Part shown: positions 1,392 through 57,697 of the stretch, in pieces
Numbering within the stretch: the first letter of the stretch is position 1
How the letters are laid out: every line of letters begins with the position of its first letter
Virus record (IMG/VR): IMGVR_UViG_3300032007_000003
Span: 248,029 to 312,028 of that record
DNA: 64,000 bases
Direction: 5' to 3' (one strand)
Source: a virus
Taxonomy: Duplodnaviria; Heunggongvirae; Uroviricota; Caudoviricetes
Notes under the pieces: generated by a model
What the model was told of the DNA's origin: nothing
The model's input: the letters and a program-made list of their open reading frames with translations, nothing else
Database searches by the model: none
Made by a program: the position numbers and the translations under genes

Positions 1392-1470
1392 GGGAACACA
1401 CAGCAAGTATTTCTATTAACAAGTAATTAATTTTGGGTTTTAAGAGTACGGTTAAAAAATGTTCCCTTAT
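1392..1470 (+). ncRNA. motif-initiated structured element (GGGAACACACAGCAAGTAT...TGTTCCC-TT)
   Basis: The 5' 7 nt GGGAACA pair with the downstream TGTTCCC, which is followed by a U-tract. It is one member of a family of at least 11 elements. Confidence 0.35.
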
Positions 1471-3196: not shown

Positions 3197-3323
3197 GGAA
3201 ACATACAGCAAGTATTAATAGGTTATAGCATTAAACTGATAATTTAAGGGTCGTTGGTTCGAGTCCAACCCTCCCCACAAAAAATTAAACTTGGGGAGGT
3301 AGCTAAGATGGATAAATGTTTCC
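3197..3323 (+). ncRNA. permuted tRNA-like element (3' half Ile-GAT-like, then 5' acceptor, closed by GGAAACA...TGTTTCC)
   Basis: Order: motif GGAAACATACAGCAAGTAT; anticodon arm TTAAA-CTGATAA-TTTAA; T-arm GTTGGTTCGAGTCCAAC; 3' acceptor CCTCCCC. A 16-nt loop and the matching 5' acceptor GGGGAGG plus a D-arm-like TAGCTAAGATGG come next, before TGTTTCC. Confidence 0.35.
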
Positions 3324-3328
3324 GAAAA

Positions 3329-3410
3329 TAGGGGAGTAACTGGTAATCGGTTTCCAACTGCATTTGGGGTGCAGGCCTTAGTCGGCATGCGGGTTCGAGT
3401 CCCGTTTCCC
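3329..3410 (+). tRNA. non-canonical type-II tRNA-like gene, paralog of 2829-2909
   Basis: Acceptor AGGGGAG/TTCCCCT. The D-arm ACTGGTAATCGGT and anticodon arm TTCCAA-CTGCAT-TTGGGG match the first copy. T-arm GCGGGTTCGAGTCCCGT. Confidence 0.4.
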
Positions 3411-3465
3411 CTACAAGTTGATGTAAATCAATAAATTACATAAATAGTATAGAGTGTTTTGAATT

Positions 3466-4868: not shown

Positions 4869-4957
4869 GGGAACTCACAGCAAGTTTAAAATGGATAATT
4901 TTTTATTTGACCAAAATGAAAATAGATAGTTCGAGCCTATCAAAGTTATAGTTCCCT
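4869..4957 (+). ncRNA. motif-initiated structured element with a T-arm-like hairpin
   Basis: GGGAACTCACAGCAAGTTT ... GATAG-TTCGAGC-CTATC ... TATAGTTCCC-TTTT. The terminal stem is GGGAACT/AGTTCCC. It is homologous to 39308-39414. Confidence 0.35.
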
Positions 4958-6404: not shown

Positions 6405-7091
6405 ATGAAAAAAGAAGATTTAAGGAAAACTATAAATAAAAGCATTGGAGAACAAAAAAAAATAATTGAAAGTACTAATTCTATTAGTTATGCTGCAAGA
6501 GAAATTTTAGGCACAGATAGCACACTTGCTAGAACTATAATTAAAGAAATATGTGAAGAACAAGGTTGGGATATACCAACTTGGTATAATAGGGTTAGAT
6601 ATTGTTTACATTGTGGAAAACCAATCATAGGTGGGGATAGTAAAAAGAAATTTTGTAATAGTTCTTGTGCAGCATCATATAATAATAAGTTAAGAAGTAC
6701 AAAAAAACACTATTGTATTAATTGTGGTAAAGAAATAAAACGAGGTAAATTTTGTAACAATACTTGTTGTGCAGAATATAATGCAAAACAATATATTGAA
6801 CGTTGGAAAAATGGGGAGGAAAATGGGTTGAGTGGCAAATATGGAATTTCGCAATATGTTAGACATTATATTTTTGAGAAAAATGATAATAAATGCGAGG
6901 TTTGTGGGAAAAGCTATATAAACCCATATACTGGATTATCTGTACTTCAGATTCATCACAAAGATGGAGATTGTACAAATAATAAGGAAGAGAATCTTCA
7001 ACTATTATGCCCAACGCATCATGCAATGACAGAAAACTTTGGAAGTAGAAATCCAAATGCAACTAGAAAGGATAATAGAATGAGATATTAA
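6405..7091 (+). CDS. HNH homing endonuclease (paralog 2)
   Basis: 'IHHKDGDCTNNKEENLQLLCPTHH' plus multiple CxxC zinc-finger pairs. Confidence 0.7.
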   Translation: MKKEDLRKTINKSIGEQKKIIESTNSISYAAREILGTDSTLARTIIKEICEEQGWDIPTWYNRVRYCLHCGKPIIGGDSKKKFCNSSCAASYNNKLRSTKKHYCINCGKEIKRGKFCNNTCCAEYNAKQYIERWKNGEENGLSGKYGISQYVRHYIFEKNDNKCEVCGKSYINPYTGLSVLQIHHKDGDCTNNKEENLQLLCPTHHAMTENFGSRNPNATRKDNRMRY

Positions 7092-7092
7092 A

Positions 7093-7164
7093 TGACGGTG
7101 TAGCACAGTGGCTAGTGCGTCTGCTTGCCATGCAGAGGACGCCAGTTCGATTCTGGTCATCGTC
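7093..7164 (+). tRNA. tRNA-Gly(GCC)
   Basis: Acceptor GACGGTG/CATCGTC. D-arm GCACAGTGGCTAGTGC. Anticodon loop TTGCCAT. T-arm GCCAGTTCGATTCTGGT. Confidence 0.7.
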
Positions 7165-7198
7165 TCACAAACAGTTGTTAAACTGAGGAGTTGCACCA

Positions 7199-7241
7199 TG
7201 CCGTGTTAAAAGGTAATATTGGTTCGAATCCAATACACGGC
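7199..7241 (+). ncRNA. tRNA-like minihelix (acceptor stem plus T-arm only)
   Basis: GCCGTGT-TAAAAGGTAAT-ATTGGTTCGAATCCAAT-ACACGGC-T. The acceptor is a perfect 7 bp with a canonical T-arm, and there are no D or anticodon arms. The element at 26787-26827 is homologous. Confidence 0.3.
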
Positions 7242-7502
7242 TCAAATAAGAATTACATGAAAAGTTGGCGTAGTAAGCCATCTTCTAAAGAGTGGGCAGA
7301 AGCAATAGATAACTATTGTGAGTTGACATTGTAAACTCAATGGTCTGCCACCTATAATGGGGTAAAAGTCCACCCTAAGATAATAGGTGTTGGCAGTATG
7401 GCGAGGTTATGAACTCAGATTTCGGTAGGACACACGAGACTCCTTTGCCTTGAAAGGGACATCAAAGTAATTCTTTCATTAATTAAACTAAAATCTAACA
7501 AT

Positions 7503-7715
7503 ATGGAAAAATGTATGCGTTGTGGTCATGAACTTATCATTGGAGGTAATTTCATGCTCAGTGAAATCAACGGAGAAATTTTGGCAGAGGAGGATGATGC
7601 AATGGTAACAAATGCATCTTGTCCTTATTGCGGAGCAAGGTATGAACTATACGACACACCACAATCTGAAAAAAAGAATTATCCATATTGGAGAGACAAC
7701 AATTTGGAGGCTTAG
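7503..7715 (+). CDS. zinc-ribbon small protein
   Basis: CxxC ... CxxC pairs (MRCGHE ... SCPYCGARYELYD). Confidence 0.4.
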   Translation: MEKCMRCGHELIIGGNFMLSEINGEILAEEDDAMVTNASCPYCGARYELYDTPQSEKKNYPYWRDNNLEA

Positions 7716-7780
7716 TTCAGTAGGTTAGAGCACCAAGCTTATACCTTGGGAGTCGGTGGTTCAAGTCCATCAGCCTCTAC
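7706..7780 (+). tRNA. tRNA-Ile(TAT)
   Basis: Acceptor GGAGGCT/AGCCTCT. D-arm GTTCAGTAGGTTAGAGC. Anticodon stem CCAAG/CTTGG with loop CTTATAC. T-arm GGTGGTTCAAGTCCATC. Confidence 0.55.
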
Positions 7781-7785
7781 TGCAA

Positions 7786-7922
7786 GGAAACATCCAGCAA
7801 ATAAAGAGTTATTATTGTAAATTGCTACCGTAACGGTTTGTGGGTTCGACTCCCACACGTCTATCTTAACGAGGGCGTTGGTGAAATTGGTAAACACGGC
7901 TATTGGAGAATAAAATGTTTCC
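7786..7922 (+). ncRNA. permuted tRNA-like element (T-arm then a Leu/Ser-like 5' half; closed by GGAAACA...TGTTTCC)
   Basis: Motif variant GGAAACATCCAGCAAATAAAG, then T-arm TGTGGGTTCGACTCCCACA, then a type-II-like 5' half GAGGGCG-TT-GGTGAAATTGGTAAACAC, then AAAATGTTTCCG-TCTTTTT. Confidence 0.3.
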
Positions 7923-8685: not shown

Positions 8686-8970
8686 ATGATTTTATGTTAT
8701 ATAATTGGTGGTCTCATTCTTGGTGGTTTTATAGTATCACTACTATTCTCCTACGAGATTAGACACGCAATAACAATTCTAGACACAGAGCCTTTCCTTA
8801 AAGGTGATTATGCGGAAGAAGAACCATATGTTAAGTATCATAATGTTTATTGCAAGAACTGTAAATTCTTCGATGGGACAGCAACATGCCTACATGAACA
8901 TAGTTTCGGTATCTTGAGCAATCATAATACAATTATATGCAAAACAGATGGGTTCTTTGAACCAAAATAA
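8686..8970 (+). CDS. small membrane protein with C-terminal Cys cluster
   Basis: A hydrophobic N-terminal segment, then CKNCKF...CLHEH. Confidence 0.35.
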   Translation: MILCYIIGGLILGGFIVSLLFSYEIRHAITILDTEPFLKGDYAEEEPYVKYHNVYCKNCKFFDGTATCLHEHSFGILSNHNTIICKTDGFFEPK

Positions 8971-8978
8971 AACTTAAT

Positions 8979-9005
8979 GGTGGGGTAGCTCAGTTGGATA
9001 GAGCA
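8979..9005 (+). pseudogene. orphan tRNA 5' half (acceptor plus D-arm) abutting an HNH gene
   Basis: GGTGGGG-TA-GCTCAGTTGGATAGAGC is followed by an A-run and the HNH gene at 9074. No matching 3' half was found. Confidence 0.4.
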
Positions 9006-9073
9006 AAAAAAAATGTACGAAAAGTCGTAACTTTCAAAAACTCATAATATTTATATACAAATGTACGAATATT

Positions 9074-9942: not shown

Positions 9943-10095
9943 AGGAACGTACAGCAATCATTTACTTATTTTAAAACATTGTATTAGATTCGTAAATGAA
10001 GATAAGCGAAGCACTAAATCATAATTGCGAGGCACTTATCTATGCTCTTAGGGGCGAATGTCTAGTCATGACAGTAAATTGACCGTTCCTTTTTA
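9943..10095 (+). ncRNA. motif-initiated structured element
   Basis: AGGAACGTACAGCAATCA ... CGTTCCT-TTTTAT. The terminal stem is AGGAACG/CGTTCCT, followed by a U-tract. Confidence 0.3.
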
Positions 10096-10898: not shown

Positions 10899-10911
10899 AA
10901 AAAAGTTCTCA

Positions 10912-10951
10912 AAAAATTTGGAATTCTCAAAAATTATCTATATCTTTGCAA
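10912..10951 (+). promoter_or_regulatory. conserved promoter copy
   Basis: AAAAAATTTGGAATTCTCAAAAATTATCTATATCTTTGCA. Confidence 0.5.
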
Positions 10952-13224: not shown

Positions 13225-13311
13225 GTTTGGATAGTCAAGAGGTCGAAGACAACAGACTGTTAATCTGTCGTGGCGTTGTCCCCATCGTAGGTTCGAATCC
13301 TACTCCAAACG
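13225..13311 (+). tRNA. tRNA with long variable arm, anticodon loop CTGTTAA (GTT?)
   Basis: Acceptor GTTTGGA/TCCAAAC. Anticodon stem ACAGA/TCTGT. An 18-nt variable region. T-arm GTAGGTTCGAATCCTAC. The identity is ambiguous. Confidence 0.4.
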
Positions 13312-13316
13312 CAATT

Positions 13317-13399
13317 AGGAGGCTGAGAGCACTGGAAAATAGTGTGCTATGCCATTGTTGAGGTGAGCATAGAAGATGGGTTCGATTCCCATAGCCCCC
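13317..13399 (+). tRNA. tRNA-like (unresolved interior)
   Basis: Acceptor GGAGGCT/AGCCCCC at 6 of 7 pairs. T-arm GATGGGTTCGATTCCCAT. Confidence 0.25.
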
Positions 13400-17535: not shown

Positions 17536-17618
17536 GCTGGGGTGGCTGAGAGGTTGAAAGCACTGGCTTTGTAACCCAGAGGCGAAAGCCCACGCAGGTT
17601 CGAATCCTGTCCCCAGCT
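17536..17618 (+). tRNA. type-II tRNA (Ser/Tyr-like D-arm), anticodon loop region CTTTGTAAC unresolved
   Basis: Acceptor GCTGGGG/CCCCAGC (perfect). D-arm GGCTGAGAGGTTGAAAGCA. Variable arm GGCGAAAGCC. T-arm GCAGGTTCGAATCCTGT. Confidence 0.5.
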
Positions 17619-17627
17619 CTAAAAAAT

Positions 17628-17754
17628 GGTGACGTAGCTCAGTCGGTAGAGCACTAAAAAATCAACGTGTTGCCTCGTGTGCGCAACCCACAGCAAATAT
17701 TATGATGAAAGGCTGTTAACCTAGGGGTCTGTGGTTCGAGTCCACACGTCACCG
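17628..17754 (+). tRNA. interrupted tRNA (about 55-nt insertion after the D-arm carrying the CCACAGCAAATAT motif)
   Basis: 5' GGTGACG-TA-GCTCAGTCGGTAGAGC and 3' TGTGGTTCGAGTCCACA-CGTCACC pair perfectly across 126 nt. An Asn-like CTGTTAA loop lies before the T-arm. Confidence 0.45.
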
Positions 17755-18735: not shown

Positions 18736-19125
18736 ATGAAAGATTTGGAAAAGTTTTCGAAAGACGTTGCTATATCGTATAGTAATGCAGTAAAGGAGAG
18801 GATGAATACAAATGTAGATAATGTTGCCAATAAAATTATTGACTACATTTCTTCTAGGTATGAAGGTGTAATCAAGTCAGCGATTGACAATAATTTTAAC
18901 TGCAAGTCAGTTAAAATATCTTTACCAAGGTCATGTTCTCCTAAGAAACTTAGCTCTAATGAGGGTACTAGGAAAGATATTTTGAAAGAATTGAATGAGA
19001 CAGTGAACGCACATTTTAAGAACTTCGGTTTTGCTGTTTTTCTTACTGATGGCGGTTCTTGTAGATGCTTGTTTGATTGTCTGTGTAACCGAAAGGAATT
19101 TGTTGCAGAAATAATATGGGAGTGA
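18736..19125 (+). CDS. hypothetical protein
   Basis: 129-aa ORF. Its 3' end overlaps a tRNA-like minihelix. Confidence 0.4.
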   Translation: MKDLEKFSKDVAISYSNAVKERMNTNVDNVANKIIDYISSRYEGVIKSAIDNNFNCKSVKISLPRSCSPKKLSSNEGTRKDILKELNETVNAHFKNFGFAVFLTDGGSCRCLFDCLCNRKEFVAEIIWE

Positions 19126-19152
19126 ATGTGGGTTCAAGTCCCACTCTTCCAA
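19117..19152 (+). ncRNA. tRNA-like minihelix
   Basis: TGGGAGT-GAAT-GTGGGTTCAAGTCCCAC-TCTTCCA-A. Confidence 0.25.
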
Positions 19153-19226: not shown

Positions 19227-19297
19227 TGTGCGGATAGTACAATGGTGAGTACAACTTCTTATACAAGTTAATTGGGGTTCGAGTCCCCACCGCATGC
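19227..19297 (+). tRNA. tRNA-Ile(TAT)-like second copy
   Basis: Anticodon stem AACTT/AAGTT with loop CTTATAC. T-arm TGGGGTTCGAGTCCCCA. The acceptor TGTGCGG/CCGCATG relies on G-U pairs. Confidence 0.4.
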
Positions 19298-22577: not shown

Positions 22578-23138
22578 ATGGCAGTAGGCGTAATTATCGC
22601 AAGACTTCAGCCAATTCATAAGGGACACCTTGAGTTGGTTAGACAAGCTCTTAATGAGAATGACGAGGTTCTTATCCTTGTTGGTTCAGCAGATAAACTG
22701 AATAAGCGTAATCCAATTCCTATCGCAATGCGTTTGGATTTGGCAAACAAGGCTATTACTGAGGAGTTTGGTGAGGACGCTGGCAAAGTTAAAGTAATGC
22801 CACTTAATGACCTTACAGATGAATCAGATAATTCTCATGATTGGGGTTTTTATCTTTACAGTCATATAGTTGGAATCACTAAGTCACCTGAATTCACTAT
22901 TTATTATTCAGATGGATTTGAGATTATCATGCAGTGGTTTCCTCCATTCATTACGAGAGACTTCGTTTCTTTCAAGTTGAATGCTAGAGGCGCAATCCAC
23001 AACAACTTGTCTGCCACAAAGGTAAGACAGATGATTCTCAAAGGTGATGAAGAGGCTCTTGCAGAAGCCGTACCAACTTGTGTCGCTGAGAATGCGATGA
23101 TATTGAAACATTTCATTGAAGCATTTCAAGATGTATGA
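22578..23138 (+). CDS. nicotinamide-nucleotide adenylyltransferase (NadM/NMNAT-like cytidylyltransferase fold)
   Basis: 'VGVIIARLQPIHKGHLELV' is the (H/T)xGH nucleotidyltransferase motif. The protein is 186 aa. Confidence 0.6.
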   Translation: MAVGVIIARLQPIHKGHLELVRQALNENDEVLILVGSADKLNKRNPIPIAMRLDLANKAITEEFGEDAGKVKVMPLNDLTDESDNSHDWGFYLYSHIVGITKSPEFTIYYSDGFEIIMQWFPPFITRDFVSFKLNARGAIHNNLSATKVRQMILKGDEEALAEAVPTCVAENAMILKHFIEAFQDV

Positions 23139-23565: not shown

Positions 23566-23984
23566 CAAACATAATGGGCTTGAAACGGTATAGATTGGCT
23601 GTAGTTTGGTAAGAGACAAGCAGTGGGCATACACTTTCAAATAGCAAAAAAATTAAACGCAGAGAACGTAGATTCTCCTGCTTACGAGTTCGCTATTGCA
23701 GCGTAAACGTGAGCCGAGAGGCTAGGCTCTTAGGAACAGAACATCCTAGCAAATTTTTTTTTGATTAGAAGAAAGGTTCCTGGTTCGAGACCTTGGGAGC
23801 ATTGCTTTAGTTCAAAACGCTTAGGTGTGTTGTAGCTGTTGACAGCTTGGTAGAACATTCTGATAATCAAATGGTGGAATCGGTGACTCTAGTCATCCCC
23901 TAGTGTAATGGCGATACACTTTAATAAAACGTTCTGAGGAAGAAAACCTCTTACCAAAAATTGAAAAGTTTGTATAATCTCTTA

Positions 23985-24027
23985 TGGGACGCAGAACAAG
24001 ACGTGGGTTCAACTCCCACCAGGTCCA
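23985..24027 (+). ncRNA. tRNA-like minihelix
   Basis: GGGAC-GCAGAACAAGA-CGTGGGTTCAACTCCCAC-CAGGTCC. Confidence 0.25.
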
Positions 24028-24045
24028 CTAACAATTAGTTACGTT

Positions 24046-24519: not shown

Positions 24520-24532
24520 AAAAGTTCTTTGA

Positions 24533-24570
24533 AAATTTGGAAATCTCAAAAATTATCTATATCTTTGCAC
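24533..24570 (+). promoter_or_regulatory. conserved promoter copy
   Basis: AAAATTTGGAAATCTCAAAAATTATCTATATCTTTGCA. Confidence 0.5.
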
Positions 24571-24843: not shown

Positions 24844-24999
24844 ATGAAAAAAGTTCCTAAAAAATTTGGAATTCTCAAAAAAAAGATATATCTTTGCAAA
24901 GTTGGAACGAAATAAATGAGGAAACTAACAGCAAACATTTAAACATCAAACTGCTAATTTGAACAACGTTTAAAAAGTTTCCGTTTTATATATAATATC

Positions 25000-25070: not shown

Positions 25071-26164
25071 CAAATGTAACATAAATACTCAGGTGCAATC
25101 GGTAGTAAAGGTTGGCGAGGAAAGTGAGGTTGCGACAAACATACAACCGTATGAAATAAAGCGGATGTCCTTTACCATTAAATTGGTTCTGTAAAATGAA
25201 TCAGCCTTTACAATGTTACATACAATATACTTGGAAGATACCAGAGGAGAAACGGTAGTGTAACAACTAACGGTGTAGACAAATGGGCATCAAGTTCGTG
25301 CTTAGTGTGCTCTTTCGAGAGCTTCGGTGATTCAAATTCACCTCGTTCAACAACTCTCACATTGTAGGCTTCGGCTGAAAATGAGGAGTTTGGCTAGCTT
25401 TCGTAGCCAAATGAAGGATAATCCAGTGATGGGATTAAATGTGATGTGAAGTTGACCATAGTAGCATTACAGATATGTAGGGGCAACCCTATGTATTTCA
25501 CTGAAAAGCATATGGCACGGTCTACATTGGGGGTAACACCTTGGATGTAGGCTCTCAAGGGCTGAATGTCTTTGAGTGAGTGGTAACACAATAGATTGTC
25601 ATATGGAACTTGATGCAATAATCACCAGTTGGCGTGTTGGGTTCAGTTATGTGCTAGTCTTAAGTAGAAATGCTTGAGAACCGTAAGGCTGATAGTATGT
25701 AATAGCAATTGGACTTGTGGTGAGTCTTTGTAGGGAGGCGATTTCGTGGGTCGTGCTCAAAAGGCACGAATGCGATGGGTCGCACCTCGTCTTCCAATGG
25801 TCGCAGAAAAGGTTTGAAATTAATAGGGTTCAAAAGTTTACAAAGCAAAAGTGTGCGACACTAGGCAGCTAAAATGCACTTATCCTTCTGCAATATGAAG
25901 GGGTTGGGGACTCGCAAGGAATCCAACAAGAGAGTAAAAGTACTCGTCTGAGTTAGTAGGAGGCATCCTATGAATCCGCAAGAGCTTGGCGAAGAACTGA
26001 AATCTATGATGCTGTACCGAAAGGTTTAAACTAGTAAGTGTTTGGTTGTTTTCGCAAAACCTCCGTGCATGGTGTCTACGGCTATCGTAAGGTAGCGTGT
26101 GAACAACAACGTCCAACCGTTGTGAAATGGCATCAACAATAAGACAATGTTCTCAGTCTTTTTG

Positions 26165-26297
26165 TGTTTATATAGGGATATAGCTCAGTGGTAGAGTAAT
26201 TTTGTTGCGATTTAAGCTATACACAATACTAACTTCGGAACGTATTGATGCTTTAACTGATAATGAAACGGTCATTGGTTCGAATCCAGTTGTCCCT
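26165..26297 (+). tRNA. interrupted tRNA-Ile(GAT)-like (about 53-nt insertion between the D-arm and anticodon stem)
   Basis: 5' AGGGATA-TA-GCTCAGTGGTAGAGT; 3' TTTAA-CTGATAA-TGAAA-CGGTC-ATTGGTTCGAATCCAGT-TGTCCCT. The acceptor pairs across 133 nt. Confidence 0.4.
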
Positions 26298-26459
26298 GCG
26301 TACCGTGATTATGATGCTTCCACGTATGATAAGCATCTTACTTATTATAGTAGGTTAACATGCTATAGTAGATTGGAGAAGTTTTGGCTACTAATTGTGG
26401 CTAGTAAAATGAAAGTTTTCATCCAATCGTTTTTTATACGGCTTAATATTTAATTATAT

Positions 26460-26786
26460 ATGAGAGATTTTACTTATAGTGGTTTCGAAAACCAAGAAAC
26501 ATGTAACCATTTAAGAAACGGAGAAACATGTAAGGTTACTGGAATTGGAAACTCTATGACTCCCATATTAAAATCAAGGCAAGCAGTAATATGCGAACCA
26601 GTGAAAAATGATACTGAACTTAATAAAAAAGACATTGTGCTTTGTAAAGTTAGAGGTCATCACTATTTGCATTTAATACATGCAATCAAGAATGATAATG
26701 AATACCTTATTGGTAATAATCATGGTCATATGAATGGTTGGGTATCTAAAAAGCAAATCTATGGTAAAGTCGTAGAAGTTCTCTAA
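26460..26786 (+). CDS. S24/LexA-like peptidase-domain mini-protein (second copy)
   Basis: 'GIGNSMTPILKS' has the same G-x-SM-TP motif as 124-546. Confidence 0.4.
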   Translation: MRDFTYSGFENQETCNHLRNGETCKVTGIGNSMTPILKSRQAVICEPVKNDTELNKKDIVLCKVRGHHYLHLIHAIKNDNEYLIGNNHGHMNGWVSKKQIYGKVVEVL

Positions 26787-26827
26787 GGTCACAAAAGGCA
26801 AATGAGGGTTCGATTCCCTAGTGACTG
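26787..26827 (+). ncRNA. tRNA-like minihelix (homolog of 7199-7241)
   Basis: GGTCAC-AAAAGGCAAAT-GAGGGTTCGATTCCCTA-GTGACT. The linker AAAAGG(C/T)AAAT is shared with the first minihelix. Confidence 0.3.
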
Positions 26828-26964: not shown

Positions 26965-27038
26965 GGGGTCATAGCTCAGTTGGCTAGAGCACTTGCTTTG
27001 CAAGCAAGGGGTCGTGGGTTCGACTCCCACTGGCTCCA
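26965..27038 (+). tRNA. tRNA-Ala(TGC)
   Basis: Acceptor GGGGTCA/TGGCTCC with the G3-U70 Ala identity pair. Anticodon stem CTTGC/GCAAG with loop TTTGCAA. T-arm GTGGGTTCGACTCCCAC. Confidence 0.75.
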
Positions 27039-27303
27039 CATAAAACCTACGATGTAGGCGTAGATATGAAAGCGTGGGCACATTTGTCGCAAGGGTTCAC
27101 ACTAAGAAGAATGTAGGGAGAGATATGTAACAATGTCTATGCAGTACCACTAGCGTATAGAATACTATTTCTTTCGATGCTGCCTAATGGTGTGAGAAGC
27201 ACTCTGTGAAGTTCCTATGAGTGGATAGGTAAAAATAAGTCTTCAGCAGAGGTTAAGCTAGATTCCTGATAAATCATATCCGTAGGTTTTTTAAAGATTG
27301 TGG

Positions 27304-27381
27304 AGTAGAGAAGTAGTTAAACTCGCTAGGCTCATAACCTAGTCCCATGTGGTTCGTGGGTGCAAATCCCACCTCCGCTAC
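27304..27381 (+). tRNA. tRNA(CAT) Met/Ile2-like
   Basis: Anticodon stem CTAGG/CCTAG with loop CTCATAA. T-arm GTGGG-TGCAAAT-CCCAC. Acceptor AGTAGAG/CTCCGCT at 6 of 7 pairs. Confidence 0.45.
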
Positions 27382-27386
27382 AAATA

Positions 27387-27440
27387 GGAAGCTCACAGCA
27401 ATATTATATAGATTGCAACTCTAGGTTTAACATAGCTTCC
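27387..27440 (+). ncRNA. motif-initiated hairpin element
   Basis: GGAAGCTCACAGCAATATT ... AGCTTCC-GCTTTTT. The terminal stem is 7 bp. Confidence 0.3.
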
Positions 27441-28380: not shown

Positions 28381-28456
28381 TGGGCATATGGCAGAGTGGT
28401 CGATTGCAACGGCTTCTAGGACCGTAAAAGGCGTGGGTTCGAATCCTACTATGCTC
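28381..28456 (+). tRNA. candidate amber-suppressor tRNA (anticodon CTA)
   Basis: Acceptor GGGCATA/TATGCTC. D-arm GGCAGAGTGGTCGATTGC. The anticodon stem ACGGC/ACCGT (C-A mismatch at 31-39) with loop TTCTAGG gives CTA. An alternative is a 4-bp stem with the 9-nt loop CTTCTAGGA. T-arm GTGGGTTCGAATCCTAC. Confidence 0.4.
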
Positions 28457-28840
28457 ACTACGGCTTGGCGTACCCATATTGGGTGCTGAAATAGGTTAGA
28501 CAAGCACAAGCCACGTAAGAAATGGCAGACATGCAGTAATGCGGTGCGAGGATTAGTCCCTTGCCCTAGTTCCTTGATGGTTAAGAGGATACCTTTATGG
28601 TTGGTATAGGCAAACCTATTTTATGTTATGGCAAGCGAAAATAAAAAGAAAAAAGCAAAGAATTCTTATTTAGCCAATGCTAATAAGACTACTGATAAAT
28701 TGAAGAGAATTAACTTTTACAATAAGATAAATAGAGCAGAAAATAAGTGTAAAGTTAAGGATTGTTAAAGTTGAATTAATCATTTGGTTGGTTCAACTTT
28801 TTTTCGTATCTTTACATCAGAAATTTAAAAACAAGGAAAT

Positions 28841-29857: not shown

Positions 29858-30349
29858 ATGGAAATAGAAGAATTGGCAAAGAGAGTAGCGTTTGCTCTTA
29901 TGGATAAGAACTATAAGATTGCAACTGCTGAAGAGTGTACTGCTGGACTTGTTGGCGCTGCTATTGCAAGTCAAGACTATGCTCAGAGGTGGTATAAGGG
30001 TACTATTGTTACATATGATGAAGCTAGTGCTTGTAAAGTTTTAGAAGTTCAAGACTACACCATTAAAAGGAATGACTTTGTTAGCACTCAAGTGGTGAGT
30101 CAAATGGCATTAACAACATTATATAGGTTTGATGTAAATATTGCATTGGCAATTAATGGGTATGTTGATGGATATGGAAGTACCAATGTTCCAGCTGGGG
30201 ATGTACAAATCTGTGTAGCAAAATTAGTTGGAAAATCAGTGTCTTTCAAAAATAAGAAGCTGTTAGTTAGAGGAAAGGATAGAGGGAAGAATATTGAAGA
30301 AGCAATTAAGGAGGCTCTTATCCTTATAATGGAATCAATTGTAGATTAA
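29858..30349 (+). CDS. CinA C-terminal domain protein (PncC-like NMN deamidase)
   Basis: 'IATAEECTAGLVGAAIAS ... GTIVTYDEASACKVL ... VVSQMA' matches the CinA_C pattern (AESCTGG...G.V.YS...VS..A). Confidence 0.55.
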   Translation: MEIEELAKRVAFALMDKNYKIATAEECTAGLVGAAIASQDYAQRWYKGTIVTYDEASACKVLEVQDYTIKRNDFVSTQVVSQMALTTLYRFDVNIALAINGYVDGYGSTNVPAGDVQICVAKLVGKSVSFKNKKLLVRGKDRGKNIEEAIKEALILIMESIVD

Positions 30350-32631: not shown

Positions 32632-32718
32632 TATATCTCCTTCGTCTATCGGTTAGGACACCTAGGGGTAACTCACGTGGTAAGAGAGGTTCGATTCCTC
32701 TAGGAGATTCTATAGCAG
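32632..32718 (+). tRNA. tRNA-like (perfect acceptor and T-arm, interior unresolved)
   Basis: Acceptor ATCTCCT/AGGAGAT. T-arm AGAGGTTCGATTCCTCT. It is 87 nt long. Confidence 0.3.
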
Positions 32719-32992: not shown

Positions 32993-33129
32993 GTGCGGTT
33001 CGTCTAGTGGTTCAGGACAACGTTTAAAAAAGTTTTTTAACGTTTCCGTTAGGAAATAGACAGCAGATGTATTATTGAAAAATTATGCATTCCAAGCCGT
33101 AAACAGAGGTTCGAATCCTCTACCGCACT
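32993..33129 (+). tRNA. interrupted tRNA (Glu-like D-arm; about 70-nt insertion with ...CGTTTCC-GTTA-GGAAATAGACAGCAG...)
   Basis: 5' GTGCGGT-TC-GTCTAGTGGTTCAGGAC; 3' AGAGGTTCGAATCCTCT-ACCGCAC. The acceptor pairs perfectly. The insertion holds a hairpin and the motif pair. Confidence 0.4.
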
Positions 33130-39087: not shown

Positions 39088-39199
39088 AGGGAGATAGTGT
39101 AACGGTAACACGCTGTAGTTTCCGTTACCTTTGAGGTAACATTACAGCAGTCGTTAGGAAAATAGCTTGTGGTGCCAGTATTGGAGGTTCGAATCCTTC
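39088..39199 (+). tRNA. interrupted tRNA (insertion carrying TTTCCGTTACC-TTTGA-GGTAACATTACAGCAG)
   Basis: 5' AGGGAGA-TA-GTGTAACGGTAACAC; 3' GGAGGTTCGAATCCTTC-TCTCCCT. The acceptor is perfect. GCTGT...ACAGC flank the inserted hairpin. Confidence 0.35.
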
Positions 39200-39212
39200 T
39201 CTCCCTACAAAA

Positions 39213-39305
39213 TGGCGAGGTGGCAGAGTGGTCTATCGCACTTCTCTCATAAGGAAGCGGGTTTAAACTATACCCACCGTTGGTTCAAATCCAACCCTCG
39301 CTACC
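39213..39305 (+). tRNA. type-II-bodied tRNA with anticodon CAT and encoded CCA
   Basis: Acceptor GGCGAGG/CCTCGCT. The D-arm GGCAGAGTGGTCTATCGCA is shared with the CTA tRNA at 28381. Anticodon stem CTTCT/GGAAG with loop CTCATAA. Long variable arm. T-arm GTTGGTTCAAATCCAAC. It ends A-CCA. Confidence 0.45.
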
Positions 39306-39307
39306 AA

Positions 39308-39414
39308 GGGAACTTACAGCAAGTATAACTCGTGAAGGAATGGTCTACTTGAAAGTCTAGAAAACTTTTGCGCATTTGCGCTTGTGGGTTCGAATCCCAC
39401 CGACTATAGTTCTC
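39308..39414 (+). ncRNA. motif-initiated tRNA-like element (type-II-like)
   Basis: GGGAACTTACAGCAAGTATAA ... AAAGT-CTAGAAA-ACTTT ... GCGCATTTGCGC ... GTGGGTTCGAATCCCAC-CGACTAT-AGTTCTC-GTTTT. Confidence 0.3.
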
Positions 39415-41018: not shown

Positions 41019-41573
41019 ATGGATAAGAAATTGGTTAACCAACCTTGTTATGACAAAGAAGGAAACCTTATTGGGTGGTTTAGCCGTTCAATGGCATCTG
41101 CAATCTTCATCTATTGTAGAGACAAAGATGGCGATTGGTGTGTTCTTGCGTCAGAACGAGGTGAAGAAGCTGCTGATTTTAGAGGCTTTTGGAATTGCAC
41201 ATGTGGTTATTTAGATTTTAATGAAACAACCAAAGATTGTGCAATGAGAGAACTTTATGAGGAAACTGGACTTCTTATAGATGAAGGGTTAGTTAAACTA
41301 GTAGGTTATGAGGACAGCCCAGAAGCTAACAGACAGAATGTCACATTCCGTTTTGCAGCTTTCATTGAGGATGCTATTACAGATGAATTTACATTCTCTA
41401 GGAAGAATAACGAAGGAAAAGAAGTTGGAGAGATTAAGTGGATTAAAATGTCAGATGTTGATAAATACATGTGGGCATTTAACCATGATAAGCGTATTAA
41501 GGAAATCTTTGAAACTAGAGAGGTGAAACCCACATTGGTTGATAAGTTAAAGCGTTGGATTAGAAACAAGTAA
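41019..41573 (+). CDS. Nudix hydrolase
   Basis: The Nudix box 'GGYLDFNETTKDCAMRELYEETGL' fits GX5EX7REUXEEXGU. Confidence 0.65.
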   Translation: MDKKLVNQPCYDKEGNLIGWFSRSMASAIFIYCRDKDGDWCVLASERGEEAADFRGFWNCTCGYLDFNETTKDCAMRELYEETGLLIDEGLVKLVGYEDSPEANRQNVTFRFAAFIEDAITDEFTFSRKNNEGKEVGEIKWIKMSDVDKYMWAFNHDKRIKEIFETREVKPTLVDKLKRWIRNK

Positions 41574-44617: not shown

Positions 44618-45151
44618 ATGACCAATTTTAAAATTATTGCTTGCATTAACCAAAAGAGAGTTTTAGGTAATGAGGGTAAACTTTTGTATCACATTGGTAA
44701 TGACTTAGCCAATTTTAAACGTATGACTGTTGGTAATGTCGTAATCATGGGTAGGAAAACATTTGATTCATTACCGAATGGTGAACCATTAAAGGACAGA
44801 GTTAACATTATTATTACTGCTGATGAGGAGTATAGTATTGATGCAAAGTTCGATAATGTTTACATCGTACACTCAGTGGAAGATGCTGTAGAGTTATGTG
44901 ATGCTTTCTTCTCAGATAAGGAAGTATTCGTTATTGGAGGTGAAAGTATTTACCGTCAGTTTATGGAAAAAGACCTTATTAATGAAATGAGGCTGACTAT
45001 TGTTAATGATAGTGCTGATGGTGATGTAGTGTTTCCAGAGTATGACGAAGAGGATTGGTATGTATATTACAAGTCAATGGCTCAAGTTAGCTCATGGGAA
45101 GGTGTTGACAAATCATTCTATTTTGAGATTTTACTTAAGAAAAGGGTATAA
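44618..45151 (+). CDS. folA: dihydrofolate reductase
   Basis: 'IIACINQKRVLGNEGKLLYHIGNDLANFKRMTVGNVVIMGRKTFDSLP' is the DHFR N-terminal signature. 177 aa. Confidence 0.75.
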   Translation: MTNFKIIACINQKRVLGNEGKLLYHIGNDLANFKRMTVGNVVIMGRKTFDSLPNGEPLKDRVNIIITADEEYSIDAKFDNVYIVHSVEDAVELCDAFFSDKEVFVIGGESIYRQFMEKDLINEMRLTIVNDSADGDVVFPEYDEEDWYVYYKSMAQVSSWEGVDKSFYFEILLKKRV

Positions 45152-56302: not shown

Positions 56303-57697
56303 ATGGAATTATTCAAAGAAGATAAACATAAAAAGCTTTTAAAGAAGTTACAAGATTGCATTAAGGGCACTGCATTTGAAAATAACGTCTATCTTGTAGG
56401 TGGTTGTGTGAGAGACGCTTTGCTAAATGAACCCATTAAGGATTTTGATATTGTGGTATCAATAAAAAATGGTGGCATTATGCTTGCTAACCTATTGGCT
56501 GCAAAGGAAAAGTGCTATAAATTGGGTAGCAATCCAGTGGTATATCCCAAATACGGTACTGCAAAGGTTACTCTGTATAATGATGAAGACCTTAAGGACT
56601 TGGACATTGAGTTTGTTCAGACTCGTAAGGAGCAATATCATGAGGATAGTAGAAATCCAGAACAAGTATTTGGTACAGTTGAAGAGGATGCAAAACGCAG
56701 AGATTTAACCATCAATTCATTGTATTATAATATAAGTGATGAAAAGATATATGATTTTAACTTAGGTATTGATGACTTGGTTAATCAAGTTATTAAAACA
56801 CCGACTGACCCAGATATCACATTCAATGATGACCCATTACGTATATTGAGGGTTATCAGATTCTCTTGTCGTTATGGATGGGGTATTGAAAAGAATACTT
56901 GGTTAGGTATGGTTAAGAATGCTCATCGTATTAAAATTATCTCACAAGAGAGAATCACTGATGAAATTTCAAAGATTATAACTAGTCCAAACCCTTCAGT
57001 TGGTATAAGGAAAATGTTGTTCTGTGGTCTTCTGAATAAGGTGATGCCAGACATATATGACTTAACCAATGCATATGAATCAAGGAATCCAATGCTAACG
57101 TCATTTGACCATACCATGATGGTTCTTGATAAGGTACAGCCTTATATTGAGACTAGATTGGCTGCGTTATTCCATGATGTTGGTAGAATCGCAAGTGAAG
57201 CCAATAGAGGAATCTCACAAGATTTGTTTAGTGCTGATGTGGCTGTTTGTGACTTGAAACTCATGAAGTTCCCAAATGCAATAGCAGATTCTGTTGAGAA
57301 TTCAATTAAGTATCATAGATTCTTTAGAAACTATGCTGATGGTACTGTTCCACCAGATAAGAAGATAAGAAAGTTCATCAACTTATGTGGTGACAACATT
57401 GGGAACGTTGTTGACTTGATGAATGCCAACAACTTGTGTCAAACTTATGACAAGAAAAAGAGACAAGCATTGGACATTCTGAATAGGATTGAAGAACTTG
57501 ATGAGCTTGAAGAGGCTAAGAATGTTAAACTACCCATCGATGGAAAAGATATCATGAAGGAGTTTAATCTTAAGTCTGGACCTCATATTGGTAAACTTAT
57601 GGATTGTTTGAAGGAAGCTTACTTTGATAATCCTAAAATTACTAAAGAAGAGTGCTTTAAGTTGATAGAGGAAAAGATAAAGGTCTTGGCGGTATGA
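56303..57697 (+). CDS. cca: CCA-adding tRNA nucleotidyltransferase with HD domain
   Basis: 'VYLVGGCVRDALLNEPIKDFDIVV' is the class-II nucleotidyltransferase head. An 'LFHDVGR' HD motif is present. Confidence 0.75.
   Translation: MELFKEDKHKKLLKKLQDCIKGTAFENNVYLVGGCVRDALLNEPIKDFDIVVSIKNGGIMLANLLAAKEKCYKLGSNPVVYPKYGTAKVTLYNDEDLKDLDIEFVQTRKEQYHEDSRNPEQVFGTVEEDAKRRDLTINSLYYNISDEKIYDFNLGIDDLVNQVIKTPTDPDITFNDDPLRILRVIRFSCRYGWGIEKNTWLGMVKNAHRIKIISQERITDEISKIITSPNPSVGIRKMLFCGLLNKVMPDIYDLTNAYESRNPMLTSFDHTMMVLDKVQPYIETRLAALFHDVGRIASEANRGISQDLFSADVAVCDLKLMKFPNAIADSVENSIKYHRFFRNYADGTVPPDKKIRKFINLCGDNIGNVVDLMNANNLCQTYDKKKRQALDILNRIEELDELEEAKNVKLPIDGKDIMKEFNLKSGPHIGKLMDCLKEAYFDNPKITKEECFKLIEEKIKVLAV

Follow-up and report, generated by a model that had tools for sequence, protein, structure and literature searches.

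A phage tRNA array contains short elements in which an acceptor stem is joined through a linker to a T-arm, and these minihelices keep their structure across related genomes through compensatory changes, are coupled to stop codons and, at one slot, give way in other genomes to a full tRNA or a terminator. They were analyzed in a window of 64,000 nt from a Caudoviricetes genome (positions 248,029 to 312,028 of IMG/VR record IMGVR_UViG_3300032007_000003). We propose, with a probability of about 0.45, that the minihelices are phage counterparts of the t-elements of plant mitochondria, serving as minimal substrates of RNase P, RNase Z and the CCA-adding enzyme that punctuate tRNA-ORF transcripts. 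Such t-elements were described by Forner et al. in 2007 (PMC1920247) and, reportedly, by Hanic-Joyce and Gray in 1990. The first-pass annotation of this DNA had listed four sites at which an acceptor stem was joined to a T-arm and the D and anticodon arms were missing. This description fits three of them (referred to here as E1, E2 and E3) but fails at the fourth, which is part of a tmRNA.

Architecture of the minihelices

Minihelix E1 (7200–7242, + strand) was identified by its fold, by the Rfam tRNA model and by alignment with a tRNA-like gene of relatives. Its architecture is the one originally assigned to 7199–7241, although the element begins at 7200 rather than 7199. A 7-bp acceptor stem (GCCGTGT, 7200–7206, paired with ACACGGC, 7235–7241) encloses the 11-nt linker TAAAAGGTAAT (7207–7217) and the T-arm ATTGG TTCGAAT CCAAT (7218–7234), and an unpaired T follows at 7242. 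With 7+5 Watson-Crick pairs and the T-loop TTCGAAT, the stems of E1 are those of a canonical tRNA. The minimum free energy structure is exactly the minihelix (−13.8 kcal/mol, z = −3.5), and none of 200 shuffled sequences folded as well. The Rfam tRNA model (RF00005) aligns with the whole of E1 once its two inner arms are treated as deletions, 4 and 1 nt standing in for the 15 and 18 nt of the D and anticodon arms, at 28.7 bits compared with a gathering score of 29. In a descriptor scan, E1 was the sole strict match on the + strand, where 0.18 matches are expected per shuffled window for both strands together.

Minihelix E2 (26787–26827, + strand), for which the evidence is sequence, fold and the presence of orthologues (12 of the 14 viral loci, plus additional loci from metagenomes), has the acceptor stem, linker and T-arm first attributed to it. 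Its body (26787–26826) is followed by an unpaired G at 26827. The acceptor stem has only 6 bp (GGTCAC/GTGACT, the first pair being G·U), the linker is AAAAGGCAAAT and the T-arm is GAGGG-TTCGATT-CCCTA, for a total of 6+4(5) pairs and 11, not 12, stacked base pairs. Because the outer T-stem pair is a G·A mismatch in this genome, the fold of E2 taken alone is not significant (z = −0.95), whereas relatives have T-A at this position and their variant, TAGGG/CCCTA, forms the minihelix with z = −2.2. The likeness noticed earlier between the linkers of E1 and E2 is apparent; both are 10–11 nt long, A-rich and contain GG. It is likewise correct that one element lies 3′ of a tRNA and the other 3′ of a protein gene: E1 follows tRNA-Gly(GCC) (7094–7166, + strand) after a gap of 33 nt, and E2 follows an ORF (26460–26786, + strand) encoding a 108-aa Peptidase_S24-like protein (Pfam PF00717, E = 1e-5).

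Weaker copies had been suggested at 23985–24027 and from position 19117 onward. The latter exists as E3 (19117–19151, + strand), which is based on its fold and on conservation in one close relative and reads TGGGAG / TGAAT / GTGGG TTCAAGT CCCAC / t / CTTCCA. Its acceptor stem, TGGGAG/CTTCCA, includes one G·U pair and one bulged T, and its linker, TGAAT, is 5 nt long, lacks GG and contains a stop codon. In the close relative E3 is conserved with an A to G change in the T-loop, and no further orthologues of it were found. The site at 23985–24027, by contrast, belongs to a tmRNA, of which it forms the T-arm and the 3′ strand of the acceptor, and is no minihelix (tmRNA at 23576–24030, + strand; Rfam RF00023, 56.9 bits, E = 1e-19). 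The 5′ acceptor strand of this tmRNA lies 450 nt upstream, and ARAGORN detected orthologous tmRNAs with tag peptides in loci L003 and L012. Only at this site do the acceptor strands mark opposite ends of a gene with a tag reading frame; the strands of E1, E2 and E3 lie 5–11 nt from the T-arm.

The minihelices have neither a D arm nor an anticodon arm with a usable anticodon, and ARAGORN called nothing at E1, E2, E3 or any orthologue. At both gathering and permissive thresholds, Rfam returned no family other than tRNA (near threshold) at E1 and none for E2 or E3, where the tRNA model had no match and only 7–10-bit matches of the T-arm to the tmRNA model were seen. Two further classes were considered and rejected. 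A terminator scan was empty at E1 and E2, and because the trailers TCAAATAA and GACAATCA have no U-tract, the elements are not intrinsic terminators. Integration (att) fragments of tRNAs were dismissed as well, a complementary 5′ strand being present in every case; the elements are located within the phage tRNA array or in a 3′ UTR and not at the border of an integrated element. The stability of the minihelices is low (−5 to −14 kcal/mol), which makes it more likely that their shape and T-loop are recognized than that they merely block exonucleases. Their z-scores are often unremarkable.

Conservation and exchange at minihelix slots

The S24-like protein has 520 homologues, one of them in Wendovervirus sonii, and in 12 of 14 relatives on viral contigs a minihelix is found immediately 3′ of the stop codon of its gene. 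The same arrangement is seen at about 24 loci of related megaphages. Across no fewer than 16 loci both stems are always kept, although the acceptors comprise five or more unrelated sequences. Further unrelated acceptor pairs at orthologous loci are CATGGA/TCCATG, TGAATTA/TAATTCA, CCCAA/TTGGG and GCCCA/TGGGT. The T-loop is constant as TTCRAYT, and GGTTCRAYTCC is retained in all variants. In a MAFFT alignment of 11 E2 orthologues, 90.6% of cells pair, compared with 34–53% when the partners are slid, and the first T-stem pair occurs as GC, UA or GU and the third as AU, GC or UA. Within one lineage that has a common acceptor and the linker AATGGTTGTAT, the T-stem has gone from GAAGG/CCTTC to GAGGG/CCCTT, which is a true compensatory change from A-U to G-C. 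A lack of conservation in related phages, which the first-pass annotation had named as counting against its proposal, is not what the relatives show: the stems are conserved with compensatory changes and the linker GG persists at the S24 slot in all but two atypical linkers (L531 and L538). Imperfect copies also occur at this slot, with an A·G mismatch in L274 and just three T-stem pairs in L537.

Minihelices with the same type of linker are also present at the 3′ ends of ORFs in unrelated small phage contigs that lack tRNAs; in the L002 family the minihelix overlaps the TAA codon, and in L019 it lies 45 nt 3′ of the stop codon. The pattern of linker plus T-arm marks a minihelix in 7 of 28 viral matches, compared with at most 1 of 120 in cellular genomes. 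A looser pattern, AAAAGGNAAN{6,7}TTCRANTC, gave mostly chance matches and no new minihelix. The acceptor stems, being unrelated, were not brought into register by MAFFT (alignment A2), and a descriptor scan therefore took the place of a covariance model. It revealed no further convincing copies in 3.1 Mb of retrieved loci, and at low stringency it was noisy (81 matches, compared with 38 in reversed controls). Neither the L002 nor the L019 context had a match among GenBank phages, which also contained no close relative of the window, and the papers searched gave no account of phage minihelices or of permuted phage tRNAs.

In relatives the slot of E1 is occupied by a 114-nt tRNA-like gene or a 76-nt tRNA, and E1 corresponds to the 114–116-nt form of the tRNA-like gene minus 73 internal nt (alignment A5), a short form known from one genome only. 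This would fit a neutral origin for the minihelices generally, in which deletions and recombination in an unstable array leave acceptor and T-arm pieces that have no function and decay slowly. The many other partial or rearranged tRNA pieces in the array, orphan T-arms included, are consistent with such an origin, as are the mismatches and unexceptional z-scores of some copies and the abundance of homing endonuclease genes that could drive turnover; furthermore, the unrelated stems at the S24 slot could derive from different parent tRNAs rather than from selection on the minihelix. Decay does not readily explain, however, how, in at least 16 loci with five or more unrelated acceptors, one slot has lost neither stem and never varied in its T-loop, how an A-U pair was replaced by G-C against a common acceptor and linker, or why the linker GG is so seldom lost. 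In addition, the linker of E1 is unlike anything in its long-form parent and instead conforms to the AAAAGGNAA(A)T type seen in E2, L002 and L019, random deletion would not predict placement at stop codons, and the small phages have no tRNA genes from which a minihelix could decay. We consider it unlikely that the minihelices are neutral remnants, although this is an alternative to be taken seriously.

The occupant of the S24 slot is itself exchangeable. A complete tRNA takes the place of the minihelix in L277 (Asp), L539 (Gly) and L541 (Thr), and in the Lak-type genome L530 the slot contains an intrinsic terminator, consisting of a hairpin and a T-run. In most genomes a real tRNA-Ala follows 10–150 nt 3′ of the minihelix; in the window this is tRNA-Ala(UGC) (26965–27039, + strand), a conserved 3′ neighbor of the S24 gene and minihelix in most of the related genomes. 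As this tRNA would already supply an RNase P site, the minihelix at the S24 slot may be redundant. The minihelix and the flank 3′ of it are identical in L279 and L267, yet their S24 proteins differ, and recombination between genomes may account for part of the sequence conservation. The start of an ORF directly 3′ of the minihelix in L274–L276 was checked and proved unsupported.

The presence of different occupants at the same slots in different genomes also raises the question of whether the element acts at the level of DNA, where it would be a site of recombination or homing, or else a tRNA fragment of the att type, through which tRNA and ORF cassettes are exchanged. HNH and GIY-YIG genes are plentiful, and 3′ fragments of tRNAs are common products of integration, which, like the minihelices, place a T-arm and 3′ acceptor strand outside a complete gene (PMC9897764). 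But integration fragments comprise the 3′ part of the tRNA only and flank the integrated element, whereas the minihelices possess a 5′ acceptor strand placed to pair with the 3′ strand and are conserved at a gene end. Moreover, the compensatory changes preserve pairing of the RNA type, including G·U, and all minihelix copies, like all tRNAs, are on the transcribed strand, so that a DNA-level function appears very improbable.

Stop-codon coupling and a possible role in RNA processing

The tRNA region of the phage extends over 40 kb, in which tRNAs alternate with small genes on one strand. Seven real tRNAs in the window start between −10 and +9 nt from the upstream stop codon (binomial P about 4e-4); among the tRNAs of the array, tRNA-Gly(GCC) starts 2 nt 3′ of the stop codon of an HNH ORF (6405–7091), and the tRNA at 7706 begins upstream of a stop codon. 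E2 and E3 obey the same rule. The TAA codon of the S24 gene (26784–26786) directly abuts E2 (0 nt), and the 129-aa ORF upstream of E3 (18736–19125, + strand; no family in a Pfam scan) has its last two codons and TGA (19123–19125) inside the element, an offset of −9 nt from the last base of the stop codon to the first base of E3. Placement at a coding end on the sense strand is thus seen for E2, E3, the L002 family and L019, with E1 as the exception, since its upstream neighbor is a tRNA rather than an ORF. HNH endonuclease genes are found at three of the seven tight ORF-tRNA junctions, which could reflect sites of mobile-cassette insertion rather than RNA processing.

Acceptor/T-arm minihelices suffice as substrates for bacterial RNase P and CCA-adding enzymes. 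CCA is not encoded in any of the phage's tRNAs or minihelices, and the window contains a gene (56303–57697, + strand) for a nucleotidyltransferase of the CCA-adding/poly(A) polymerase family (Pfam PolyA_pol, 4.7e-27; PolyA_pol_RNAbd, 1.6e-15; tRNA_NucTran2_2, 1e-4), the product of which is a candidate enzyme for both tRNAs and minihelices. In the processing scheme that we infer, involving polycistronic transcription, cleavage by RNase P and RNase Z, CCA addition and docking of the linker GG, the 40-kb region would be transcribed on one strand as long RNAs with alternating tRNAs and small genes, and each minihelix would present an acceptor stem stacked on a T-arm to host RNase P, RNase Z and the phage CCA-adding enzyme, this probably being the only part of a tRNA that those enzymes need. 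Docking on the T-loop, which in a real tRNA involves G18-G19 of the D-loop, is probably the part played by the linker GG. A cut at the 5′ edge of the minihelix would leave the upstream mRNA ending at or next to its stop codon, real tRNAs would do likewise at seven other gene ends in the window, and the released fragment of ~40 nt would be a by-product. Indirect support for punctuation comes from the tie to stop codons, the equivalence of occupants at the slot, the seven tRNA junctions and the encoded enzyme of the CCA-adding type.

Several known systems resemble the proposed one. Plant mitochondrial t-elements are cut by RNase P and RNase Z, generating 3′ and 5′ ends of mRNAs, and the released element receives a non-templated C or CCA; some are situated upstream of a stop codon and give rise to stop-less mRNAs (PMC1920247), as E3 would. 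Both t-elements and minihelices are partial tRNA-like structures built on the T-loop motif GGTTCRANYCC at the ends of protein-coding transcripts, and both minihelix stems pair. The t-elements, however, are organellar and usually form a fuller, non-canonical cloverleaf, whereas the phage elements, known from sequence, consist of acceptor and T-arm with a 9–18-nt linker. Synthetic tRNA minihelices, which are substrates for RNase P, CCA-adding enzyme and AlaRS, have the same coaxial two-helix design of ~35–45 nt but normally join the helices without a linker, where the phage elements have a conserved A-rich, GG-containing one, and the phage minihelices lack the G3:U70 pair that makes minihelix-Ala chargeable. 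Animal mitochondrial punctuation likewise involves genes and tRNAs alternating on one strand, with stop codons abutting the 5′ ends of tRNAs, although functional tRNAs are used there and the phage slot is filled by a non-decoding surrogate. The tRNA-like domain of tmRNA shares the acceptor and T-arm, with a short substitute for the D-loop and no anticodon arm, but its acceptor strands, separated by ~450 nt, have pseudoknots and an mRNA-like domain between them; tmRNA has G3:U70 for alanylation. Finally, mascRNA and MEN-beta (the 3′ ends of MALAT1 and NEAT1; RF01684) are, like the minihelices, tRNA mimics inside a longer transcript, and in the case of mascRNA the RNase P cut gives the upstream RNA its mature 3′ end, while the piece set free acquires a CCA tail. 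mascRNA differs in being of the vertebrate nucleus and a near-complete cloverleaf with a reduced anticodon arm, and RF01684 had no significant match in the window, the only weak match being the real tRNA at 19227.

An alternative cis function would have the minihelix remain uncleaved on the mRNA end after downstream processing, protecting or marking it through CCA or CCACCA, perhaps by analogy with the tRNA-like structures that end plant viral RNAs. Consistent with such a cap, the Lak-type genome has a terminator hairpin, a classic 3′ protective structure, at the S24 slot, the downstream tRNA-Ala would supply a cleavage leaving the minihelix as the new 3′ end, and a CCA-adding enzyme is encoded by the phage. 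On the other hand, minihelix stability is low for a barrier to exonucleases, the start of E3 and of the tRNA at 7706 upstream of a stop codon fits cleavage and not a cap, and the L002 family has its own canonical terminator ~90 nt further downstream. We give this possibility little weight.

If the punctuation model is correct, the minihelices would be the first dedicated non-decoding tRNA mimics that cut polycistronic RNA in a bacterial virus, and they would explain the defined mRNA ends of genes within very large megaphage tRNA arrays. To our knowledge, mitochondria and a small number of long non-coding RNAs of vertebrates are so far the only examples of cutting at a tRNA mimic. The elements would also constitute a new annotatable feature of phages, none of them having been reported here by ARAGORN or by Rfam at its gathering threshold, and would offer minimal substrates of natural origin for work on RNase P and CCA-adding enzymes.

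Trans-acting products and other tRNA pieces of the array

A minihelix might instead act in trans, as a released stable tRNA-like RNA that serves, for example, as a decoy or sponge for host enzymes, defense toxins, or CCA-adding or modification machinery. The conserved top half, whose T-loop and GG could together make an elbow, and the enrichment of this element type in viral relative to cellular sequence would suit such a product, phage tRNA arrays are able to counter tRNA-targeting defenses, and modules of the array that consist of an anticodon arm alone with a varying triplet could be matching decoys of the bottom half. Arguing against it, there are only one to three copies per genome, the acceptors are not conserved and contain no known identity element, G3:U70 included, and the exchange of the minihelix for an ordinary tRNA or a terminator favors a role in cis. 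A trans-acting product would also leave the coupling to stop codons unexplained, and the decoy idea lacks specific support; we regard it as improbable.

Orphan T-arms are found at 4925, 7840, 13376, 22470 and 39384, and the array is rich in partial or rearranged tRNA pieces. Bottom-half-only modules of 52–88 nt consist of an anticodon stem-loop alone with a GGRAAC...GTTYCC closing stem, and their anticodon triplet differs between near-identical genomes. Circularly permuted tRNA genes, the halves of which are joined by a GGRAAC...GTTYCC stem, are also present. The permuted genes and anticodon-arm-only modules look more novel than the minihelices. It is conceivable, though doubtful, that the minihelices belong to a modular tRNA system of Lak-related megaphages, together with the anticodon-arm-only modules, insertion-bearing tRNAs and permuted genes; split or rejoined tRNAs might then be made, or separate half-tRNA mimics might be directed against host nucleases that attack the acceptor end or the anticodon loop. 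No complementarity between minihelix linkers and nearby anticodon-arm modules was seen by eye, and Pfam scans of 40 proteins (37 window ORFs and 3 from other loci) detected neither a splicing endonuclease nor an RNA ligase in the window.

"Enigmatic introns" have been reported in tRNAs of Lak phages (10.1101/356790); the tRNA genes that are permuted or carry insertions are relevant to these introns and raise the question of how the bacterial host or the phage joins or uses split tRNAs. One such gene in the window, the tRNA at 17628–17754, carries the same ACAGCAAG module as the bottom-half-only pieces, inserted between the D arm and the anticodon loop, and the insertion point is position 29/30 of the anticodon stem, where the junction could be fixed.

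The minihelix slot behind the S24-peptidase gene

E2, the + strand minihelix at 26787-26826 (GGTCAC-AAAAGGCAAAT-GAGGG TTCGATT CCCTA-GTGACT), was compared across relatives of the gene that precedes it, fetched with their flanks. This gene is a 108-aa Peptidase_S24-like ORF (26460-26786) whose TAA is directly followed by the first base of E2. The outer T-stem pair of E2 is G.A here, and the fold is not significant by itself; in the relatives this pair is T-A and the predicted fold is the minihelix. In 12 of 14 loci on viral contigs, the position after the stop of the S24 gene (the S24 slot) holds a minihelix, with the variants GGTCAC/AAAAGGCAAAT/TAGGG..CCCTA/GTGACT, GGTCA/AATGGTTGTAT/GAAGG..CCTTC/TGACT, GGTCA/ACATGACGGATGT(AT)GAT/GAAGG..CCTTC/TGACT, GGTCA/AATGGTTGTAT/GAGGG..CCCTT/(G)TGACT, AGGTCA/AAGTGGTAAAAA/GAAGG..CCTTC/(a)TGACTT and GCCCA/AGTGGTATT/TTATGG..CCATAA/TGGGT. 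When the orthologues were aligned with MAFFT, pairing held in 90.6% of cells, compared with 34-53% for slid partners, and three pair types were present at each of T-stem pairs 1 and 3. Ten further S24 homologues, traced to their contigs, added three clear variants (CATGGA/../GTTGG..CCGAC/TCCATG, TGAATTA/AATGGTTGTAT../TAATTCA and CCCAA/AAAGGTTT/TAACGG..CCGTTA/TTGGG) and two atypical T-arm hairpins. A stems-only alignment gave 97% pairing with double changes in 8 of 10 pairs, a figure that describes the set and is no test of pairing, because the stem segments were hand-chosen by complementarity. The T-loop at the S24 slot is invariant (TTCRAYT), and GG occurs in every linker there but the two atypical ones (loci L531 and L538). 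Two E2 variants with the same acceptor and linker differ in the T-stem by an A-U to G-C exchange, a compensatory change that arose in an already existing minihelix. That the minihelices are instead a site acting at the DNA level seems to us very improbable.

Other elements occupy the S24 slot in some of the fetched loci: a complete tRNA-Asp in L277, a tRNA-Gly in L539, a tRNA-Thr in L541 and, in the Lak-type genome of L530, a plain hairpin followed by TTTTTT; L278 and L540 have no element at the slot. A tRNA-Ala usually comes next. Minihelix, tRNA and terminator share one property, the ability to define where an RNA ends on its 3′ side. That the minihelices are an uncleaved 3′ cap we consider quite unlikely. 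The most economical reading, to which we assign a probability of roughly 45%, is that the minihelices are minimal tRNA surrogates that signal where long tRNA-ORF transcripts are to be processed. They would then be the phage counterpart of the t-elements of plant mitochondria: the conserved tRNA top half at gene ends would be cleaved by RNase P and RNase Z and afterwards receive a CCA tail. These steps are drawn from the established enzymology of minihelices (RNase P and RNase Z cleavage, CCA tailing) rather than from data on this system. The window encodes an enzyme of the CCA-adding/poly(A) polymerase family (56303-57697), and its tRNA genes do not encode CCA.

E1 and minihelices beyond the clade

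The first-pass annotation had described E1 as an acceptor stem fused to a T-arm and beginning at 7199; this structure held up, and its true start lies one base later, at 7200 (7200-7241, + strand; GCCGTGT-TAAAAGGTAAT-ATTGG TTCGAAT CCAAT-ACACGGC). The minimum-energy fold is exactly the proposed minihelix (-13.8 kcal/mol, z = -3.5), and the alignment to the Rfam tRNA model runs from position 1 to 71, lacks both the D and the anticodon arm and scores 28.7 bits against a threshold of 29. A strict descriptor has E1 as its sole + strand match in the window and gives 0.18 matches in shuffled windows, both strands together. In three relatives the counterpart at the E1 slot is a conserved tRNA-like gene of 113-116 nt, which has the same acceptor (GCCGTGT/ACACGGC) and T-loop as E1 and includes a D-arm and a middle part that is unconventional; the closest relative has a different tRNA, of 76 nt, at this slot. 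By alignment, E1 equals the long gene minus 73 internal nucleotides. Relative to the long form, its T-stem carries G49A plus C65T and also G64A, changes that each keep or improve pairing, and its linker is unlike the long-form sequence and belongs, as in E2, to the AAAAGGNAA(A)T type. Because E1 corresponds to the long gene less 73 nt, with a linker that is not the long form's, it is a lineage-specific short form of the relatives' tRNA-like gene, known from one genome. It is for E1 that an origin of the minihelices as neutral remnants is most plausible, an explanation that we regard as somewhat unlikely overall.

Scanning IMG/VR with the pattern AAAAGGNAAN{4,5}GGTTCGANTCC gave 28 matches, in 7 of which a perfectly complementary acceptor strand directly abuts the linker. 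These comprise three E2 orthologues, the family of loci L002/L023 (AGAGGAG-AAAAGGAAAG-TGTGG TTCGATT CCACA-CTCCTCT) and locus L019 (GCGGCAG-AAAAGGAAAAT-TCCGG TTCGATT CCGGA-CTGCCGC). Because the pattern selected on the linker, its sequence in these two (L002 and L019) does not count as independent evidence; the abutting stems do. The small phage contigs bearing the L002 family and L019 have no tRNA genes. The L002 element shares bases with the TAA that ends a small lipoprotein-like ORF, with a canonical terminator ~90 nt downstream, and the L019 element lies 45 nt past an ORF. That the minihelices act as a trans-acting small RNA or decoy is, in our estimation, unlikely. Since L002-family members were the only minihelices among 120 metagenome matches to the same pattern, and 120 matches in cellular genomes included at most one doubtful case, the linker-type minihelix is rare and looks phage-specific.

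Junctions of tRNA elements and stop codons

Seven ordinary tRNAs in the window (starts 7094, 7706, 9692, 11706, 13146, 16220 and 39088) start within -10 to +9 nt of the stop codon that ends an upstream ORF (minimum 50 aa), where ~1.3 would be expected by chance (binomial P about 4e-4). E2 (0 nt) and E3, a shorter + strand minihelix with a 5-nt linker at 19117-19151 (-9 nt from the last base of the stop codon to its first base), match this pattern. A caveat is that HNH endonucleases make up three of the seven ORFs, and their position may reflect insertion sites of mobile cassettes. Both E3 and the tRNA at 7706 begin 5′ of the stop codon, and cleavage at the 5′ edge of E3 would yield a stop-less mRNA; such mRNAs are known for the ccmC and nad6 t-elements (PMC1920247). 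The zinc-ribbon ORF 7503-7715 has its stop codon within the 5′ acceptor strand of a tRNA, tRNA-Ile 7706-7780, and an RNase P cut there would remove this codon, as at E3. The phage carries its own tmRNA; 23985-24027, which had been taken for a weaker minihelix copy, is the 3′ end of this RNA according to Rfam, which reports 39 tRNA matches and the tmRNA (23576-24030) in the window.

Rearranged tRNA genes and the phage that carries them

The tRNA genes (42 by ARAGORN) are arrayed on one strand over the first 40 kb of the window, which has 35.5% G+C, and alternate with small ORFs, several of them HNH or GIY-YIG endonucleases. T-arms number 51 on the + strand and 0 on the - strand, and ~12 of the 51 fall outside any called tRNA. 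Tracing these orphans led to a second array element, much more abundant than the minihelices and absent from Rfam: a module with a 7-8-bp closing stem, GGRAACN...N'GTTYCC, that covaries between copies. On its 5′ side lies the conserved motif ACAGCAAGT, and the 3′ strand is preceded by an A-run and followed by a T-run. The fetched related loci hold 77 distinct copies in two length groups, 52-88 nt and 107-174 nt; by content the copies form three groups, short ones, long ones and insertions within tRNA genes. Copies in the window (1392-1466, 4869-4956, 7786-7922, 9943-10090, 24920-24982, 27387-27440 and 39308-39414) usually lie 10-16 nt past a tRNA, and the motif only is found at about 16436 and 22427.

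Short modules (24920-24982 and 27387-27440 in the window; loci L003, L009, L313, L301 and others) hold just a complete anticodon stem-loop, that is, the bottom half only. The loop is CTGCTAA (anticodon GCU) in the window and CTGTAAA (anticodon GUA) in the otherwise identical copy of L003, so the anticodon triplet varies between near-identical genomes. In long copies the two parts of one tRNA stand in swapped order, the 3′ part first and the 5′ part behind a 15-20-nt spacer. Read from the 5′ side, the closing strand GGAAACAT and the ACAGCAAGT motif precede the anticodon arm, T-arm and 3′ acceptor strand; after a ~15-nt spacer come the 5′ acceptor strand, the D-arm and ATGTTTCC. ARAGORN calls normal tRNAs once the halves are rotated and joined in silico (Ile-GAU for 3197-3323 of the window; Gly-UCC in five contigs, Ser, Thr, Asp and Pro in relatives); the long copies are circularly permuted tRNA genes, found at 3197-3323 and in loci L281, L282, L285, L301, L319, L366, L390, L392 and L012. 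Permuted tRNA genes of phages did not turn up in our literature search. Wherever it can be fixed, the junction is at position 29/30, within the anticodon stem, whose bases 27-29 and 41-43 covary (CTA/TAG vs GTA/TAC).

The tRNAs at 17628-17754, 32993-33128, 39088-39206 and 26174-26298 bear a 44-62-nt insertion between D-arm and anticodon loop, with a ACAGCAAG motif in the first three. Only for 17628-17754 is the junction fixed; it separates anticodon-stem positions 29 and 30 (CTA|..|GG), and removal of the insert in silico leaves tRNA-Asn(GUU). Insertions of this kind probably correspond to the introns of Lak phage tRNAs, described as "enigmatic" (10.1101/356790). The insertion-bearing tRNA at 26174 is immediately preceded by a GOLLD RNA (RF02032) match at 25733-26159, which covers the full model (79 bits, E = 5e-19; below the gathering score of 150). 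The closing-stem modules, insertions and permuted tRNA genes show the minihelices to be part of a broader repertoire of rearranged tRNA pieces; these elements are also the basis of a more speculative, modular-tRNA reading.

No close relative of the window was found among deposited phages; its close relatives are several uncultivated viral contigs of ~410 kb. Because one of the 520 homologues of the S24-peptidase gene upstream of E2 occurs in Wendovervirus sonii, a 660-kb Lak-type megaphage of the order Grandevirales, the window comes from a megaphage related to the Lak group. Between E1 and ORF 7503, the intergenic stretch ~7257-7480 is conserved, orthologous in loci L280 and L285 and without an Rfam match; it contains GGGGTAAAAGTCCACCC, shows apparent compensatory changes against L285 (e.g. 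GCGAGG..CTCAG vs GCGGGG..CCCAG, CCACCTATAAT vs CCGCCTACATT) and may be an undescribed structured RNA. ARAGORN and Rfam left uncalled tRNA-like starts or genes at 8979-9010, 13318-13399, 32635-32708 and about 22500, among them the start GGTGGGGTAGCTCAGTTGGATAGAGC, 8 nt past the stop codon of ORF 8686-8970, and the 74-nt element 32635-32708 with a perfect acceptor (ATCTCCT/AGGAGAT). The motif AAAA(A)TTTGGAAWTCTCAAAAA, repeated directly 3′ of several ORFs (about 10899-10940, 24520-24560 and 24844-24885, also ~547, 31506 and 34745), may be a promoter, of phage or Bacteroidota type, or some other regulatory site. A set of genes related to NAD metabolism is scattered over the window (cytidylyltransferase-like of NMNAT type, CinA, NUDIX and nicotinate phosphoribosyltransferase; 22578-23138, 29858-30349, 41019-41573 and 61860-63104), and a DHFR gene lies at 44618-45151. 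Long variable arms, an architecture normally confined in bacteria to Leu, Ser and Tyr, occur in 82-93-nt tRNAs for Asn, Thr, Met and Pro (13225-13312, 17536-17619, 27299-27381, 39214-39306, 2829-2910 and 3330-3414). The tRNA at 28382-28458, labelled Pyl by ARAGORN, has the anticodon CUA of the amber suppressor type, and TAG is the stop of just 6 of the 61 ORFs of at least 100 aa in the window, which together hint at a stage of stop-codon reassignment, as in Lak phages.
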